Virus record (IMG/VR): IMGVR_UViG_2778261504_000009
Span: 1 to 6,021 of that record
Length of the DNA stretch: 6,021 bases
Direction: 5' to 3' (one strand)
Source: a virus
Taxonomy: Duplodnaviria > Heunggongvirae > Uroviricota > Caudoviricetes
Part shown: piece by piece, positions 1-6,021 of the stretch
How the letters are laid out: every line of letters begins with the position of its first letter
Numbering within the stretch: the first letter of the stretch is position 1
Notes under the pieces: model-generated
Seen by the model: only the letters and a program-made list of their open reading frames with translations
Database searches by the model: none
What the model was told of the DNA's origin: nothing
Position numbers and translations under genes: made by a program

Positions 1-926
1 TCGCAGTACTGGCCGATGACATACAGCGCCCATTTGTCCACATCCGCCGCACCAAGACGTTTCCCCATGCCGTAGCGTGGATGGGTCAGCATATCCCACA
101 GACACCAGGCCATGTTATTGCTGTATGCTGGCTTAAACGTTCCGTCCCAGATACCGCTGTATTGCCGAGTCTGCGGGTTATAGTTCGACGGCACCTGCAG
201 AATACGCCCGCGCAGATGATAATTACGGCTCACCTGCTGGCTGCCGAACTGCTCCGAATCCACCTGTACGCCGACCAGTGCCGTGTTCGGGTAGCACTGT
301 TTCACATCGATGATTTCGGTGTATGACGACCAGAGCGTTTTGTTCTGCAGCTGGTCTGTGGTGCTGTCCGGCGTCATCCTGCGCATCCGGATATTGAACG
401 GGCGCGGCGGCAGGTCACCCACCACCACCGAGGCCAGATACTGCGACGTGGTTTTGCCCTTAATGGTGATGTCTTTTTCCGTCACCCAGCCACCGTTACG
501 CTGTATCTGAACCAGCAGGCGGACTTCCGATGGATTCCTGTCCCCCTTTGAAGTGGTTTCCACCAGTGCCTGCACACCGAAGGTAAAGCGCAGACGGTCG
601 ATGTTTGCCGACGTAATGGTCCGGGTAATCGGCGTGTCGTACTTCACCTCCGTACCCAGCACCGTCTCGGAGTCGGAGGATTCAAATCCCTCCGGCGGTG
701 TCTGCTCCTGCTCACCAGCCCGGAACACCACCGTGACACCGGAGATATTGGTATTCCCCTCACTGTCCAGCACTGGCGTACTGTTCAGCAGCACACTTTT
801 TAATCCCTCCACCGGACCTTCAATCGGCCCTTCACTGATGGCGTCTATCACGCTCAGCAGCGGGGATGATTTCAGGTTGTCCTTCGCTTCGCGCGGGGTA
901 TGCCCCTTACTGCTGCCTTTACCCAT
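1..926 (-). CDS. J: Tail tip / host-specificity protein J, N-terminal ~308 codons; gene runs off the window at position 1
   Basis: Not in the ORF track because no stop lies in the window. Reverse complement from ATG (complement of 924..926) reads MGKGSSKGHTPREAKDNLKSSPLLSVIDAISEGPIEGPVEGLKSVLLNST..., and near the window edge ...RQYSGIWDGTFKPAYSNNMAWCLWDMLTHPRYGMGKRLGAADVDKWALYVIGQYC, which matches lambda gpJ as I remember it. Sits 60 nt downstream of the I stop, as in lambda. Confidence 0.9.
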   Translation of the reverse strand, partial: MGKGSSKGHTPREAKDNLKSSPLLSVIDAISEGPIEGPVEGLKSVLLNSTPVLDSEGNTNISGVTVVFRAGEQEQTPPEGFESSDSETVLGTEVKYDTPITRTITSANIDRLRFTFGVQALVETTSKGDRNPSEVRLLVQIQRNGGWVTEKDITIKGKTTSQYLASVVVGDLPPRPFNIRMRRMTPDSTTDQLQNKTLWSSYTEIIDVKQCYPNTALVGVQVDSEQFGSQQVSRNYHLRGRILQVPSNYNPQTRQYSGIWDGTFKPAYSNNMAWCLWDMLTHPRYGMGKRLGAADVDKWALYVIGQYC

Positions 927-986
927 TCCTCTCGCTCCAGAAACGACAAAACCGCCCGCAGGCGGTTTCACATAAAACATTTTGCA

Positions 987-1628
987 TCAGCGACCAATCA
1001 CCACAACCTGACCACCATCCCCTTCGTCTGCCGTGCTGATTTCCTGCGAAATTACCCGTGACCCCACACGCATTTCACCGTACAGAACAGGCAGAACATT
1101 GCCCTGGGCAACCATGTTATCCAGTGATGAGAAATACGTGTTCTGCTTACCGTTATCCGTGCTGGTCGTTGTTGCGGTACTCGCTTTCGGTGCCAGCATC
1201 TGTGCAACACCGCCAAGCGTCATCGCTGCACCCATTGAAAAGAGAATGTCACTGAAAGCGATACTGATCCCCGGCATCCAGATTGCCGTAGCAATCAACG
1301 CCGCACCCAGCACCGCCTGAAACACACCGCCACTTTTTGCTCCCGCAAGACGCGGCACGATGTGGATCACGGCACCATTTGCCAGCGGCTCATTAAGACG
1401 GGATGATAATTCGGTTTCGCCTGCATCACGCCCGGCAATCCGTACCTGATACCAGCCGTCGCTCAGTTTCTGACGAAACGCCGGGAGCTGTGTGGCCAGT
1501 GCGCGGATGGCTTCAGCCCCCGTTTTCACACGAAGGTCGATGCGGCGGCCAAATCGTTGTAAATCCCCGTAAAGGCAGATGCGTGCCATGCCCGGTGACG
1601 CCAGAGGGAGTGTGTGCGTCGCTGCCAT
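987..1628 (-). CDS. I: Tail assembly protein I (lambda gpI-like), 213 aa
   Basis: ORF-track translation MAATHTLPLASPGMARICLYGDLQRFGRRIDLRVKTGAEAIRALATQLPAFRQKL... ...NGKQNTYFSSLDNMVAQGNVLPVLYGEMRVGSRVISQEISTADEGDGGQVVVIGR matches lambda gpI N- and C-termini from memory. Its 5' end overlaps the 3' end of K by 103 nt out of frame, as in lambda. Confidence 0.9.
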   Translation of the reverse strand: MAATHTLPLASPGMARICLYGDLQRFGRRIDLRVKTGAEAIRALATQLPAFRQKLSDGWYQVRIAGRDAGETELSSRLNEPLANGAVIHIVPRLAGAKSGGVFQAVLGAALIATAIWMPGISIAFSDILFSMGAAMTLGGVAQMLAPKASTATTTSTDNGKQNTYFSSLDNMVAQGNVLPVLYGEMRVGSRVISQEISTADEGDGGQVVVIGR

Positions 1629-2263
1629 TTGTCGGTATACCTCTCTCGTTTGCTCAGTTGTTCAGGAATATGGTGCAGCAGCTCGCCGTCGCCGCAGTAA
1701 ATAGCGGCATGATTCGGCACCGATGAACCAAAACAGCACAGCAGCACATCGCCCGGCTGCGCCGCTGACAACGGCACCTGATACAGCCCCGTTGCCTCCA
1801 GATTATCCAGATAGAGATTCTGACCGTGACGCCACCAGTCATCCCCGCGATGAAAATCCGGCATCTCAATCCCCGCCAGATGGTAAGCATCCCGGAACAG
1901 TGTGTAACAGTCCGTCACCCCGTGCTCAAAGCGCCGCCCGGTGAGATGCGGCACACAGCGGAATTTATGAATCTCACCCCGGCAGACCAGCCACCACGGC
2001 AAATCACTCTGCACCTGCAGCCGCCGGTCAGCCTCACTCAGCCAGGGCAGGCCACCGGGGTGGCTGTGGACCAGCGCCACAATCTCACCCTGCATTTTGG
2101 CCTGCAGCCAGTCCTCCGGAGCCATCCGGAAATAATCCTCCGGCTCACCGGAGATATTCACGCAGGGAAAATATCTTTCCCCCTCCGGCGTTCTCACCAC
2201 GAAGCCGCACGACTCCGCTGGCGCACATCGCCGGGCGTGCGCCAATATATTGCTATAGAGCAT
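1526..2263 (-). CDS. K: Tail assembly protein K (lambda gpK-like) with MPN/JAMM and NlpC/P60 peptidase motifs; start placed at the ATG with a strong SD (245 aa)
   Basis: Translation carries a JAMM-type motif HSHPGGLPWLSEAD (HxHx7Sx2D) and NlpC/P60-like Cys/His contexts (GVTDCYTLF, SVPNHAAIY). The ORF-track start at 2302 is rejected because codons 2-13 lie inside a hairpin/U-tract (2276..2299). The ATG at 2261..2263 is preceded by AGGAG (complement of 2269..2273) with a 5-nt spacer. An internal ATG at 2123..2125 would give the 199-aa length I recall for the classical lambda K annotation, so the start is uncertain. Confidence 0.85.
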   Translation of the reverse strand: MLYSNILAHARRCAPAESCGFVVRTPEGERYFPCVNISGEPEDYFRMAPEDWLQAKMQGEIVALVHSHPGGLPWLSEADRRLQVQSDLPWWLVCRGEIHKFRCVPHLTGRRFEHGVTDCYTLFRDAYHLAGIEMPDFHRGDDWWRHGQNLYLDNLEATGLYQVPLSAAQPGDVLLCCFGSSVPNHAAIYCGDGELLHHIPEQLSKRERYTDKWQRRTHSLWRHRAWHASAFTGIYNDLAAASTFV

Positions 2264-2275
2264 GAGAACTCCTGA

Positions 2276-2299
2276 TAAAAAACCCAGCCGAAGCTGGGT
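2276..2299 (-). terminator. Putative intrinsic terminator after ant: 6-7 bp GC-rich stem, UUCG loop, U6 tract, directly 5' of the K ribosome-binding site
   Basis: Minus-strand RNA reads CCCAGC-UUCG-GCUGGG-UUUUUU-AUC-AGGAG-UUCUC-AUG. Plus strand shows cccagc (2283..2288), loop cgaa, gctggg (2293..2298), with an A6 run at 2277..2282. Confidence 0.5.
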
Positions 2300-2317
2300 C
2301 ATTTCGTTGGCAATCTG

Positions 2318-3238
2318 TTAGTAGTGATGCAGTGAAGGAGGTAATTCTTTGTTCTTAAGTCTTAGCCATGCAGAAAGATTCGTTGGTCCGTCTGGCTCAT
2401 TAATATCAATATCTCGCGTGTGATTGATTAAAACGTCTCTCGCCATTCCAATAACATACGAGAACTCATGACCGTAGTCGTAGCATCTGCAGGAATAGTT
2501 CGATTGAATTTGCTTTAGCGCCGGATACAGTTCGCGGAATAATGCCTGTGAGCGGTTAGCATAATCCCATAACCATACAAGGCTGTTTGCTTCTTTTGCA
2601 GAAAGCTCGTTGGTTTTCTTCTCTTGTTTGCCAATGAACTCACCTTCAAGCGGAACGCGAGCAGCAAGTGACAGTGCTTCGGTAAACTGCTCCTCACTAA
2701 TTTCTTTGTACGAACATCCAAAATGGGATTTCAGTGACGACCACATGGTGATCATCGCCTTCGCCTGTTTTTCTTTTGGCAGAGACTGACCGCGACTCAT
2801 GACAAGTTGTTTAATGGCTTCCTGCTGTTCAGTGGTGATTTTCCCCAGCAATGCCTTTTTAGCTTTGCGCGGGTTAATCACATGGCCTTTAGTCCAGTAC
2901 TCGTAGAGCACATCGTCACACTCTTCCTGATACTGGATTACCTTCTCGCGGATTTCAGGGCGGACTTTGTTAGGACTGATGGTTTGGAGCCAACCATTCA
3001 GTTTACGCAAAGCAAGGCAAATCATGGTCTGCATACCGCCAACTGAAGGTATTGCGATTTCCACAATACCTTTAGCAAATCTTTGTTTTAACTTTGTAAA
3101 CTGTGAAGCCCAATCCATACCCATTCCCTCAACGATAGGTTTCATTGGGGTGTACGGTTCGCCGTTGTGATTGACGACATAAAGCTCTGCGCCGTGGAAT
3201 GGCACGTTGATAGTAGATACCGCTGTTGCTATACTCAT
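2318..3238 (-). CDS. ant: Ant-like phage antirepressor (P22 immI Ant family), 306 aa from the ATG start
   Basis: Translation MSIATAVSTINVPFHGAELYVVNHNGEPYTPMKPIVEGMGMDWASQFTKLKQ... has the look of phage antirepressor proteins and sits immediately downstream of an Arc-like gene, the P22 arc-ant order. The ORF-track start at 3292 is a GTG inside a hairpin; ATG at 3236..3238 is preceded by AGGAA (complement of 3247..3251). Family assignment is from memory and context, not from a search. Confidence 0.75.
   Translation of the reverse strand: MSIATAVSTINVPFHGAELYVVNHNGEPYTPMKPIVEGMGMDWASQFTKLKQRFAKGIVEIAIPSVGGMQTMICLALRKLNGWLQTISPNKVRPEIREKVIQYQEECDDVLYEYWTKGHVINPRKAKKALLGKITTEQQEAIKQLVMSRGQSLPKEKQAKAMITMWSSLKSHFGCSYKEISEEQFTEALSLAARVPLEGEFIGKQEKKTNELSAKEANSLVWLWDYANRSQALFRELYPALKQIQSNYSCRCYDYGHEFSYVIGMARDVLINHTRDIDINEPDGPTNLSAWLRLKNKELPPSLHHY
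3207..3235 (+). promoter_or_regulatory. Near-consensus sigma70-type promoter firing antisense across the ant start (Psar-like)
   Basis: TTGATA (3207..3212), 17-bp spacer, TATACT (3230..3235), with TG at 3227..3228 giving an extended -10 (TGcTATACT). Predicted start near 3242. Confidence 0.4.
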
Positions 3239-3241
3239 TTC

Positions 3242-3312
3242 GTTAGTTCCTTGGAAGTTACTGACATAGAAGCCCGATTTGTGTTCGCGCACTGTCGGGC
3301 TTCGCTATTTTT
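3242..3312 (+). ncRNA. Candidate sar-like small antisense RNA (~70 nt) complementary to the ant SD and the arc-ant intercistronic region
   Basis: Bounded by the promoter at 3207..3235 and a hairpin with 9-bp stem gaagcccga (3269..3277) / tcgggcttc (3295..3303) followed by gcUAUUUUUAU (3304..3314). Coordinates are approximate. Size and position mirror the P22 sar RNA as I recall it. Confidence 0.35.
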
Positions 3313-3314
3313 AT
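3269..3314 (+). terminator. Hairpin plus U-rich tract in the arc-ant intercistronic region; candidate terminator for the antisense RNA
   Basis: Perfect 9-bp inverted repeat 3269..3277 / 3295..3303 with a 17-nt loop that can form an inner GUG/CAC stem, followed after 2 nt by tattttta. The U tract is not directly adjacent to the stem, hence modest confidence. Confidence 0.35.
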
Positions 3315-3478
3315 GTCCTAGCATTCTTCTCTCCAATCAGTCCGTACACTTTTCTCAATTGATAAATAAGTTCCGTGTTGAACTGTCGACACTCTTTTTC
3401 TCCATTTCTTTCAATCGCCTTCCTTACATCCTCTGGGAAACGAACCTTGCGTTGATACATGTCTTTTGCTTTTTCCAT
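3311..3478 (-). CDS. arc: Arc-like ribbon-helix-helix repressor, 55 aa (not in the ORF track)
   Basis: Hand translation of the reverse complement gives MEKAKDMYQRKVRFPEDVRKAIERNGEKECRQFNTELIYQLRKVYGLIGEKNART, stop TAA at complement of 3311..3313. Resembles P22 Arc (...FNLRWPREVLDLVRKVAEENGRSVNSEIYQRVMESF...) in the R-x-P-x-E-V strand and N-x-E-I/L-Y-Q helix. Preceded by AAGGAG (complement of 3484..3489) 5 nt before the ATG. Confidence 0.75.
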   Translation of the reverse strand: MEKAKDMYQRKVRFPEDVRKAIERNGEKECRQFNTELIYQLRKVYGLIGEKNART

Positions 3479-3495
3479 CTCCACTCCTTAAATAG

Positions 3496-3558
3496 CCTCA
3501 CTGTGGGGCAATCAAAATTGTCACACCGTGCGTCATTGAAGTCAACCCCACCGTGGGG
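3496..3558. promoter_or_regulatory. Operator-like sites: three CACYGTG cores at 25-bp phasing, two embedded in 13-bp palindromes
   Basis: Perfect palindrome ccccac-c-gtgggg (3546..3558) and near-palindrome cctcac-t-gtgggg (3496..3508) share the core CCNCACYGTGGGGCA. A third caccgtg lies at 3524..3530. The cores start at 3499, 3524 and 3549. Confidence 0.45.
3517..3545 (-). promoter_or_regulatory. Candidate Pant-like promoter for arc-ant
   Basis: On the minus strand: TTGACT (complement of 3540..3545), 17-bp spacer, GACAAT (complement of 3517..3522) preceded by TGT (extended -10 form). Predicted start near 3510, about 30 nt upstream of the arc ATG. Confidence 0.4.
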
Positions 3559-3564
3559 CATAAT
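3536..3564 (+). promoter_or_regulatory. Candidate Pmnt-like promoter for the Mnt-like gene, back-to-back with the arc-ant promoter
   Basis: TTGAAG (3536..3541), 17-bp spacer, CATAAT (3559..3564). Its -35 overlaps the -35 of the divergent minus-strand promoter by 2 bp. Confidence 0.4.
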
Positions 3565-3601
3565 TTACTTATTGTGAATTTTTCCTGTTTGGACTAATGG
3601 T

Positions 3602-3976
3602 ATGAGTAGAGAAGACCCTCAACTTCGGATTAGGCTTCCTGTTGAATTAAAAAAAATAATTGAAGCGTCATCAAAACAAAATAATCGTTCTATGAATGCT
3701 GAGATTGTCACTCTGCTTGAGTTGGCGATTCGTGTTTGTCGTGATTTTGGGCCGGAGGATGGTCCTATCGTTCAGCAGTTTAAAGAACAACTAGATGCGA
3801 TAAACAGAAAATATGATAAAAGCGAGCATGAAAAACTTATACCTCAACTTTTAGAAATCATAGAAAAACAGAAAAAACAAGTAGATAAACTTATTAGCAT
3901 GGTTGAAAGATCAATTCCTCTTTCAGAGGAATATAAGCAGAAATATCTTGGTGATGACAACAAAAAACCCACCTGA
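3602..3976 (+). CDS. mnt: Mnt-like ribbon-helix-helix repressor with an extended charged C-terminal region, 124 aa
   Basis: N-terminus MSREDPQLRIRLPVELKKIIEASSKQNNRSMNAEIVTLLELAI resembles P22 Mnt (ARDDPHFNFRMPMEVREKL...NGRSMNSELLQIVQDAL) as recalled. The C-terminal ~80 residues are K/E/Q-rich and probably helical. Divergent from arc-ant as in P22 immI. The SD is weak. Confidence 0.75.
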   Translation: MSREDPQLRIRLPVELKKIIEASSKQNNRSMNAEIVTLLELAIRVCRDFGPEDGPIVQQFKEQLDAINRKYDKSEHEKLIPQLLEIIEKQKKQVDKLISMVERSIPLSEEYKQKYLGDDNKKPT

Positions 3977-3983
3977 TGGTGGG
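3962..3983 (-). terminator. Putative intrinsic terminator 3' of L, overlapping the stop codon of the convergent Mnt-like gene
   Basis: Minus-strand RNA reads CCCACC-AUCA-GGUGGG-UUUUUUGUUGU. Plus strand shows cccacc (3968..3973), loop tgat, ggtggg (3978..3983), preceded by an A6 run (3962..3967). The mnt TGA stop (3974..3976) lies in the loop. Confidence 0.45.
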
Positions 3984-3992
3984 CATAATCCA

Positions 3993-4691
3993 TTACTGCG
4001 AAAGTTTGTTAATGGAAAGGAAGCCGCCAAAGTTGCCGACGTTATTGCGAAACTTACAGCCACTCAGGCATTTGCTGCATTTATCCTTCGTGATATCGGA
4101 CGTCGGCTGGTCATATTCATCCGCGACAGCCGGACCGTTATAACCGCACTCATCACCGCGATAGGTCCAGGTGCAGGTGTTGGCCAGCATGATACGCCCC
4201 GGAAAAACAGCGCCATCCGTTTCCGTCGGCGTGGCCAGTACAAAGGAGGCACTCACCGCGCTCAGTTCACTGCACTGCTCGATGCGCCAGCGGCTGATCA
4301 CCTCCTGCTCCGGATCGGCGTCACTGTTTCCGTTGACGAAGTTCACCGCATCCAGAAAACGGGCGTAAACCTTACGCCTGACCACCGTTCCGCCGACCAG
4401 ACTCTGCATATCTTCCACCATACCGGTGACCATGCCGTACAGGTTAGAGACTGCCAGCGTGGGCCGCGTACTGGTGCCTTTGCCATTCAGTTCAAAACCG
4501 CTCCCCTGAATGGGATACGCCTGATACTGCCTCCCCTGCCAGGTGATCGGCTCACCTTTTTCGTTCTGCTCATTACAGAAAAAATAACGTTCTCCACCGA
4601 CCTCTGTCAGGTCGATTTCCCAGAGCACCACGCTGGCCGACTGCTCCGCACGGGTGCATTCATTCAGTGTTTCCTGCCGGATATCCTGCAT
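3993..4691 (-). CDS. L: Tail tip protein L (lambda gpL-like), 232 aa
   Basis: Translation MQDIRQETLNECTRAEQSASVVLWEIDLTEVGGERYFFCNEQNEKGEP...CSKCLSGCKFRNNVGNFGGFLSINKLSQ matches lambda gpL from memory. Start overlaps the M stop by 1 nt (TGATG). Confidence 0.9.
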   Translation of the reverse strand: MQDIRQETLNECTRAEQSASVVLWEIDLTEVGGERYFFCNEQNEKGEPITWQGRQYQAYPIQGSGFELNGKGTSTRPTLAVSNLYGMVTGMVEDMQSLVGGTVVRRKVYARFLDAVNFVNGNSDADPEQEVISRWRIEQCSELSAVSASFVLATPTETDGAVFPGRIMLANTCTWTYRGDECGYNGPAVADEYDQPTSDITKDKCSKCLSGCKFRNNVGNFGGFLSINKLSQ

Positions 4692-5020
4692 CAGTTCACC
4701 ACCTGTTCAAACTCTGCGCTGAACTCAACACGCAGCATACTGACCCGCGACGACCATTTTGCGCAGGTCACCTTTATCTGCCGCCACTCATAAGGCGGCG
4801 TCCACAGAAAGGCTTTCCAGCCCCCGTGCTCTTCCAGAAACGACTCCAGTACCGTGGCCTCCTCACGGGGGACAGAAAGCGTCACGCTGTACGTTTTCAG
4901 GTTGGCATTCAGCCCGGCAGGCGCTCGCTGGGAATAGCCATCACCAAAGCGCACCTTTCTTACAGAAGGGGCCGAAGCCACATCCATACCGGGTTTCACT
5001 TTCCAGCGGAAGGTTTTCAT
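4691..5020 (-). CDS. M: Tail tip protein M (lambda gpM-like), 109 aa
   Basis: Translation MKTFRWKVKPGMDVASAPSVRKVRFGDGYSQRAPAGLNANLKTYSVTLSVPREEATVLESFLEEHGGWKAFLWTPPYEWRQIKVTCAKWSSRVSMLRVEFSAEFEQVVN matches lambda gpM from memory. ATGA overlap with the H stop. Confidence 0.9.
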   Translation of the reverse strand: MKTFRWKVKPGMDVASAPSVRKVRFGDGYSQRAPAGLNANLKTYSVTLSVPREEATVLESFLEEHGGWKAFLWTPPYEWRQIKVTCAKWSSRVSMLRVEFSAEFEQVVN

Positions 5021-6021
5021 CGTCCACCTCCGGAGAACAGGCCACCATCACGCATCTGTGTCTGAATTTCATCACGGGCACCCTTGCGGGCCATGTCATA
5101 CACTGCCTTCATCATCTGTGGACCTGGCAGACCATTCGTACCGTCGTTCTGAATCACCACGTGATTGTTCTGATTAAAATTAATGCCTTCAGCCCGCCGC
5201 ATCTGCGCCGGACTTCCGGCACCGCCCACATAACCACCTTCCGCATAGCCCCGCATCAGGCGGTACAGGTTGCCGACACCAATCCGGCTGGTTGCCTCCT
5301 TCGTGAAGACAAATTCACCACGGTGAACAATCCCCGCTGGCTCATATTTGCCGCCGGTTCCCGTAAATCCCCCGGTCGCGAAATGGAAGTTCGCCGCCGC
5401 AGCCTGAATGGCCGTCCCCGTGGAGGCAGACGCACCACCACCGAAAGCACCGCCAATGGCGCTGCCGATACTCCCGACTATCCCCACCATCGCCTGCTTC
5501 AGAAAAATCTCTGTCAGCATGGAGAGCACAGAACGGGTGAAACCACGCCAGTTCTGTTCGCTGCCGGTCAGCATCGCTGCCATATTCTGTGCAATACCGT
5601 CAAAGGTCTGCGTGGCCGCGCTTTTAACCTGCGAAAAACTGTCCGTCGCACTTTCCGCCCACTCGCCCCAGCCGGACTTCAGCCCGGCCATCCAGCTTCC
5701 ACGAAGCTGCTCCTCCGCAGACCAGGTGTTCTTCAGTGCAGATGTGGCCTTCGCCAGCGCAGCCGGATTATCACCGTACACGTCACGAAGGCGCTGCTCT
5801 TCCGACTCCCGCTGCGCCTGACGGTCGGTGAGGCCGCGGGCTTTTGCGCTGATGGCTGCCTGCTTCGCGCTCTGCTGCTGTTCAAACCGCGCCGCCTGCT
5901 GTGCCAGCTCATTCAGCCGTTTCTGGTGTTCAACCTTGTCGCCAAGCTCAGCCAGCTGGCGTTTGTACTCCAGCGTCTCTTTCTCATGGGTCAGCAGGGA
6001 TTTTTCCTGCTCAGATAACTG
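5017..6021 (-). CDS. H: Tail tape-measure protein H, C-terminal ~334 codons; 5' part lies beyond the window
   Basis: The frame is open from the window edge: reverse complement from 6021 reads QLSEQEKSLLTHEKETLEYKRQLAELGDKVEHQKRLNELAQQAARFEQQQSAKQAAISAKARGLTDRQAQRESEEQRLRDVYGDNPAALAKAT... and ends ...RDGGLFSGGGR, matching the lambda gpH C-terminus from memory. The ORF-track M at 5781 is an internal GTG (Val), not a start. Confidence 0.9.
   Translation of the reverse strand, partial: QLSEQEKSLLTHEKETLEYKRQLAELGDKVEHQKRLNELAQQAARFEQQQSAKQAAISAKARGLTDRQAQRESEEQRLRDVYGDNPAALAKATSALKNTWSAEEQLRGSWMAGLKSGWGEWAESATDSFSQVKSAATQTFDGIAQNMAAMLTGSEQNWRGFTRSVLSMLTEIFLKQAMVGIVGSIGSAIGGAFGGGASASTGTAIQAAAANFHFATGGFTGTGGKYEPAGIVHRGEFVFTKEATSRIGVGNLYRLMRGYAEGGYVGGAGSPAQMRRAEGINFNQNNHVVIQNDGTNGLPGPQMMKAVYDMARKGARDEIQTQMRDGGLFSGGGR

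Follow-up and report, generated by a model that had tools for sequence, protein, structure and literature searches.

Why should a hairpin followed by a run of U residues lie in the middle of a phage tail operon, directly in front of gene K, and where does K begin? These questions are raised by positions 2276-2299 of a 6,021-nucleotide stretch of Caudoviricetes DNA (IMG/VR record IMGVR_UViG_2778261504_000009, positions 1 to 6,021), referred to here as the window. We are confident, though short of certain, that the hairpin is the rho-independent terminator tANT of an ant moron of the P22 immI type (mnt-, arc- and sar-like elements together with ant), inserted between L and K of a lambda-like E. 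coli prophage, that it insulates the immunity cassette and is read through by Q-modified polymerase, and that K is translated from ATG 2263.

The structural genes in the window are all on the minus strand and in lambda order (open reading frame list). A 1.7-kb insert separates L and K; it carries a plus-strand Arc-family gene, a small minus-strand ribbon-helix-helix gene and an antirepressor gene. The features are as follows, each with the evidence on which it was assigned.

Minus strand: tape-measure gene H, partial (open reading frame list).
5020-4691, minus strand: tail gene M (open reading frame list).
3993-4691, minus strand: tail gene L, directly upstream of the cassette (open reading frame; named 'phage minor tail protein L' by PGAP).
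3958-3984, minus strand: a second late-strand terminator-like hairpin, GCCCACC-AUCA-GGUGGGU followed by U5GUUGU (scan, folding, alignment, HK620 annotation).
3602-3976, plus strand: mnt-like gene for an Arc-family repressor, divergent from arc-ant (Pfam Arc, PGAP).
3517-3545, minus strand: Pant-like match to a sigma-70 promoter, TTGACT-17-GACAAT with a TG extension (consensus scan only).
3311-3478, minus strand: arc-like ribbon-helix-helix gene, upstream of ant (weak Pfam Arc match, identity to P22 Arc).
3207-3312, plus strand: sar-like antisense unit (scan, folding, position of P22 sar).
2318-3238, minus strand: ant, antirepressor of 306 aa from ATG 3238 (Pfam, comparison with P22 Ant, PGAP start).
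2276-2300, minus strand: predicted intrinsic terminator tANT (sequence, scan, folding, alignment with P22, HK620 and Emek).
2269-2273, minus strand: Shine-Dalgarno AGGAG of K, 5 nt before ATG 2263-2261 (sequence; from the right junction of the cassette).
1526-2263, minus strand: tail-tip assembly gene K, JAB and NlpC/P60 peptidase, 245 aa (PGAP, Pfam, junction copies).
1628-987, minus strand: tail gene I (open reading frame list).

Read 5' to 3' on the minus strand, the junction runs CAC UAC UAA, CAGAUUGCCAACGAAAUG, A-CCCAGC-UUCG-GCUGGG-U, UUUUU, AUC, AGGAG, UUCUC and AUG (2263). The stem pairs 2299-2293 with 2288-2282 over 7 bp, or 8 bp if G2300.U2281 is counted, and is G+C-rich (5 G-C pairs by scan count). 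It is capped by the loop UUCG (2292-2289) on a C-G closing pair, and U6 (2282-2277) follows directly 3' of the stem. The spacer from the ant stop (UAA, 2320-2318) is 17-18 nt, and the hairpin lies in non-coding DNA 3' of that codon; upstream of 2263 the K frame shows no conservation of coding sequence. A preliminary description of this locus had given the hairpin, its loop, the U6 tract, the AGGAG-ATG and the ant stop, all at the correct positions, and its range of 2276-2299 is exactly the hairpin plus the U-run. Among 12 terminator-like sites found in the window by a consensus scan, this one ranks first. Folding gives -13.6 kcal/mol for the hairpin by itself and -20.9 kcal/mol (z = -2.7) for its 76-nt context. 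In 1000 mononucleotide shuffles of the window, perfect stems of 7 bp or more that have a loop of 3-6 nt and a T-run are found at a mean of 0.009 per window; the window itself has one.

A bidirectional terminator was also considered and was ruled out by the scan. The tail on the plus strand is the weak CATTTCGTTG, which makes the element essentially unidirectional.

By its sequence, this hairpin is already known: it is the annotated ant terminator of P22, tANT, and not a new element. Positions 2299-2276 are identical at 23 of 24 bases to the feature 'terminator, gene=ant' of P22 (BK000583, 16012-16035, ACCCAGCTTCGGCTGGGTTTTTTT). The homologous hairpin of HK620 is labeled 'terminator associated with remnant of P22 ant gene; tANT', and that of Emek is annotated as 'rho-independent terminator'. 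With the 121 bases that surround the hairpin as a BLAST query, matches fall at the ant 3' end of P22 and of many P22-like phages, and also on the annotated terminator features of Emek and HK620. In both P22 and the window the hairpin follows ant, and the gene directly 5' of it here encodes P22_AR_N and P22_AR_C. The claim of the preliminary description that this is a terminator is thus borne out by the matches to P22, HK620 and Emek. In the alignment with these three phages, the P22 homology runs from inside ant to the T-run and ends there; past the T-run the window has ATCAGGAGTTCTCATG and P22 has ATGCCCAAAATTCACC. This difference in downstream sequence could alter the efficiency of termination.

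The genes that accompany the hairpin are those of a P22 immI-type module. The ant product matches Pfam P22_AR_N (E = 9e-45) and P22_AR_C (E = 4e-29). Over its full length the identity to P22 Ant is 56%, but the C-terminal third (about 120 aa) is near-identical. The longest ant frame opens at GTG 3292 on the minus strand, and the PGAP start is ATG 3238; P22 Ant homology and the P22_AR_N domain begin just past 3238. The 18 extra codons of the longer frame (3238-3292) overlap the arc-ant spacer and the sar-like hairpin. The mnt-like gene, named 'Arc family DNA-binding protein' by PGAP, matches Pfam Arc (E = 3e-7) and is 33% identical to the N-terminus of P22 Mnt. The arc-like gene, a hypothetical protein in PGAP, matches the same family at E = 0.0011, below the curated cutoff, and is 33% identical to P22 Arc across 40 aa.

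Regulatory elements can be proposed for the cassette as well. The Pant-like promoter matches the consensus at 9 of 12 positions, and this assignment rests on position by analogy with P22, because promoter-like sites in the window do not exceed the number expected from shuffles. The best promoter match of the window, TTGATA-17-TATACT with TG (10 of 12; 3207-3235), lies within the first codons of ant and belongs to the sar-like unit. The sar-like hairpin (3269-3304, GAAGCCCGA...UCGGGCUUC), with a U-run to 3312, folds in the arc-ant spacer. From this unit an RNA of about 70 nt spanning the ant ribosome-binding site is predicted. The sar RNA of P22, also 70 nt, is annotated at the equivalent position, and its sequence similarity to the unit in the window is partial. 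An Rfam scan of the whole window (E <= 1), sar family included, returned no match. Two operator-like palindromes are present between the divergent Pant-like (3545-3517, minus) and Pmnt-like (3536-3564, plus) promoter matches, in the region 3495-3560. CCCCAC-G-GTGGGG (about 3557-3545) adjoins the -35 of the Pant-like promoter, and CCCCAC-A-GTGAGG (about 3510-3497) is near its predicted start.

That this module is an insertion can be seen from relatives that lack it. K follows 4 nt past the L stop in the lambda-like phage 2B8, and the corresponding ATG of lambda lies 5 nt past that stop; the cassette is absent at this position from both of these close relatives, as is characteristic of a moron. 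Homology of the window to 2B8 and lambda ends at the L stop and restarts at K codon 8 (GCG CAC GCC CGG = AHAR). The cassette therefore supplies the terminator, the AGGAG site and seven codons of K, so that the N-terminal MLYSNIL replaces MTETESAIL. The left boundary is marked by the other late-strand hairpin (3984-3967, -12.6 kcal/mol), 8 nt past the L stop. It is shared by phages 2851 and PhiR12_1, by HK620 (where it is named 'tMNT') and by P22 (at the mnt stop), with flanks that differ on both sides.

Two further observations concern the left hairpin. The stop codon of the mnt-like gene, on the opposite strand, falls in its loop, and the U-rich tail that P22 has in the mnt sense is lost in the window. 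With that tail lost, the hairpin looks suited to stopping transcription of the L strand rather than of mnt.

Modest novelty attaches to three aspects of this arrangement: the terminator sits right up against the ribosome-binding site of K, the N-terminus of K is rewritten by the cassette, and a conserved hairpin whose U-run is on the late strand stands at each end of the cassette.

The longest K frame opens at ATG 2302 and crosses the hairpin, as the preliminary description had observed in arguing for a start at 2263. This frame is what speaks for a coding role of the region, in which the stem-loop would encode an N-terminal extension of 13 residues, MTQLRLGFLSGVL; we find this scarcely credible. 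There is no Shine-Dalgarno sequence before 2302, and the 39 nt upstream of 2263 are homologous to P22 DNA that is non-coding and follows ant. The K leader ATCAGGAGTTCTCATGCTCTATAGCAATATATTG occurs in all 19 ant-K junction copies and is missing from insert-free lambda and 2B8. An in-frame start upstream of the 2263 equivalent is missing in 8 of the 19. The T-run has five residues in 5 of the 19, which puts the upstream ATG out of frame; another three have no upstream start, with a stop codon 42 nt upstream of the K ATG. Such variation between T5 and T6, together with the loss of the upstream ATG in related junctions, rules out a start at 2302.

The start at 2263 is borne out from several directions. 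PGAP gives K as 738 nt from the equivalent ATG, both in the identical junction and in PhiR12_1. Pfam Prok-JAB covers residues 15-116 of the 258-aa frame (2302-1526), matching profile positions 4-113; since profile position 4 aligns at residue 15 of that frame, the JAB domain begins at the 2263 Met. K of the insert-free phages opens at the position equivalent to 2263. Together with the non-coding homology of the upstream 39 nt and the junction variants, these findings uphold the start that the preliminary description had proposed.

That description had also looked to the lambda annotation as a check on the start, and such a check would mislead. The lambda ATG close behind the L stop corresponds to 2263, but it is not the annotated start. 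In NC_001416, K is annotated from an internal Met at 14276 and has 199 aa, 46 codons fewer, and for that reason the reference is a misleading guide to K starts. Lambda 14133-14276 holds 43 codons from ATG 14133 (MTQTESAILAHARRCAPAESCGF...) that are homologous to the K N-terminus and JAB domain. Lambda has one base fewer near codon 44 than the window and 2B8, and this difference puts its first 43 K codons in another frame. Either the sequenced strain has a true frameshift at this point, or the sequence contains an old error.

The hairpin and its junction are widespread. At a coverage of at least 80%, the ant-terminator-K junction is present in 461 of 5426 complete E. coli genomes, and it has also been found in several Stx phages, including 2851, YYZ-2008, 1717 and Stx2a_WGPS phages. 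The exact hairpin occurs in at least 120 IMG/VR contigs. Linked to ant, it is found there in three contexts: before a P22-type gene 9, before K, and between ant and roi in the nin region. VT2-Sakai is an example of the last (NC_000902, about 1828-1895 of the examined locus): its hairpin is identical and stands upstream of Q. All three operons that bear the hairpin are read by processively antiterminated polymerase.

In PhiR12_1 (2527-2582 of the examined locus), the ant stop and the hairpin are separated by a spacer of the VT2-Sakai Stx-phage type, yet the K leader is as in the window, which indicates recombination on both sides of the hairpin. An exact 21-mer, CCCAGCTTCGGCTGGGTTTTT, is also found after stop codons in IMG/VR contigs with unrelated, often AT-rich flanks (L005, L006, L010, L073 and others). 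These copies suggest either independent generic C(UUCG)G terminators or a wider mobility of the hairpin, and of the two we favor the former.

To examine conservation, about 125 ant-linked copies were gathered from IMG/VR and GenBank by means of a search pattern fixed on the ant 3' end. Their stems hardly vary. Eight sequence variants occur, of which five alter only the loop (CUCG, UCAG, UUAG, CACU or UCCG); the others are a C-to-U change that keeps a wobble pair, a C-to-G change that breaks the closing pair and a deletion of one G. No compensatory double changes occur among the roughly 125 copies; the hairpin is too conserved for a covariation test, and support from covariation is accordingly lacking. 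This pattern bears on whether the hairpin is a passenger, a relic that recombination carried along together with the 3' end of ant and that serves no selected function here. HK620 keeps tANT beside a mere remnant of ant, and the homology breakpoints lie exactly at the hairpin edges in three contexts, both as expected of a relic. However, the stem holds nearly constant while the loop and the spacer from the ant stop vary, and a strong terminator in an essential operon would be costly unless antitermination tolerates it and it is of use in the prophage state. A passenger without function is in our judgment very improbable.

More tentatively, the two hairpins, the tMNT-like one (3984-3967) and tANT (2299-2282), may be portable ends of immI, that is, conserved recombination joints by which the module moves between operons. 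The right joint would bring a ready ribosome-binding site and N-terminus, and the cassette might settle only in operons that are processively antiterminated (the P22 late operon, the lambda-type tail operon and the Stx-phage nin region). We put this forward as a speculation that may well prove wrong.

The window itself carries neither Q nor the late promoter, and the operon context is taken from a related prophage. Across the whole window the prophage of E. coli Res13-Lact-PEA14-20 shares 96.5% identity, and within the 221-bp junction the identity is 100%. This lambdoid prophage is complete: it encodes CI, Cro, O and P, has a nin region and carries a gene for a Q-type antitermination protein; the Q-type gene lies upstream of one co-directional lysis-head-tail block that runs through L, the cassette, K, I and J. 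The 13 nt from the U-run to the K ATG are too few to hold a promoter, and transcription can therefore reach K, I and J only through the hairpin.

In the mechanism that we propose for tANT, unmodified RNA polymerase would start at the arc-ant promoter of the cassette (candidate 3545-3517) and transcribe arc and ant. The C(UUCG)G-capped stem of 7-8 bp would then form, and the polymerase would be released at the U-run (2277-2282), 13 nt before the K start codon; with release there, transcription from the immunity cassette would not extend into K-I-J. In lytic growth, polymerase from the late promoter, once modified by Q, would pass both tANT and the hairpin after L, and this late read-through would be the sole route to transcription of K, I and J. 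The insertion has separated L from K, and since its right junction brings a new AGGAG and the seven MLYSNIL codons, K is translated from ATG 2263. The sequences show the anatomy, the homology, the module boundaries, the K start and the operon context directly; termination, its efficiency and Q-dependent read-through are what we infer here by homology. Berget, Poteete and Sauer (J Mol Biol 1983, 164:561) reportedly showed that Pant transcripts of P22 terminate between ant and gene 9. For the P22 'ant moron' in its late operon, it is accepted that the cassette is insulated and that antiterminated polymerase reads through (PMC2629481; PMC8022706). The preliminary description had arrived at the same reading of insulation and antitermination, which fits this logic, the Q-type gene of the related prophage and the 13-nt gap. 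A Term-seq data set for E. coli O157 Sakai is also available (PMC7547250).

Two other roles can be set beside insulation by tANT. The hairpin could act mainly as a partial attenuator of the late operon, with Q-modified polymerase sometimes stopping at both cassette hairpins so that the dosage of K-I-J falls below that of the upstream tail genes. The cassette is indeed flanked by two late-strand hairpins, terminators within operons have been proposed to lower downstream mRNA (PMC8022706), and a similar tuning has been suggested for the P22 tailspike (PMC2629481). Yet insert-free relatives assemble their tails without any element of that kind between L and K. As the main role attenuation appears unlikely, and it is compatible with insulation by tANT.

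The hairpin could instead serve mainly RNA stability or translation, either as a 3' cap that protects ant mRNA or as a structure just upstream of the K ribosome-binding site. Hairpins with a C(UUCG)G loop are unusually stable, which counts for such a role. The base of the stem also lies where a ribosome footprint on K would just end, 18-19 nt before its ATG. In P22 and HK620, however, the hairpin is 58-168 nt from the next gene, so proximity to the ribosome-binding site is not conserved, and protection of a 3' end is a normal by-product of any intrinsic terminator. This role is improbable as the principal one.

The main use of these results is for annotation. The start of K is fixed at 2263, giving a protein of 245 aa with an intact JAB domain, and the 199-aa lambda reference K is unfit as a guide to K starts. 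The insert between L and K is identified as an antirepressor module of the P22 immI type, probably complete, with its terminator. A strong terminator can sit within an essential tail operon because late transcription would be antiterminated. Among the complete E. coli genomes searched the cassette is common, and several Stx phages have it too; in such phages antirepressors can affect prophage induction. Nothing new is added on the terminator itself, which by its sequence is the known tANT of P22 in a widely sequenced cassette.

Compared with tANT of P22 and HK620, the window has the same hairpin sequence, ACCCAGCTTCGGCTGGGTTTTTT, with the single difference from P22 among 24 bases. As in P22, the hairpin lies 17-18 nt 3' of the ant stop, after ant 3' DNA that is about 86% identical; it has the same orientation in a late operon with a tail gene just downstream, and mnt-like, weakly arc-like and predicted sar-like elements are alongside. 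The U-run is T6 in the window and T7 in P22. From the U-run to the next gene it is 13 nt here, whereas this distance is about 60 nt in HK620 and Emek and 168 nt in P22. Identity to the P22 counterparts is about 33% for both mnt and arc. The host operon also differs, being the tail-tip cluster (L to K) of a lambda-type siphovirus and not the 16 to 9 interval of a podovirus.

Morons in general have been described by Hendrix et al. 2000. The name 'ant moron' was given to the equivalent region of P22-like phages, an independently expressed insert in the late operon, by Villafane et al. 2008 (PMC2629481). Like it, the cassette in the window is a gene set, probably under its own regulation and with its own terminator, that is inserted in a late operon and missing in close relatives. 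The morons noted in that paper are only those between 16 and 9 of P22-like phages, whereas the present module lies between L and K. Unlike the P22 ant moron, its right junction also rewrites the first 7 codons of K and the ribosome-binding site.

The intra-operon terminators of lambdoid phages, such as those of the nin region and tR', are overridden by N or Q antitermination (PMC7547250). Like them, tANT is intrinsic, lies within an operon and would be passable only by modified polymerase. Those terminators serve the timing of the regulatory cascade, whereas tANT would insulate an inserted cassette from structural genes.
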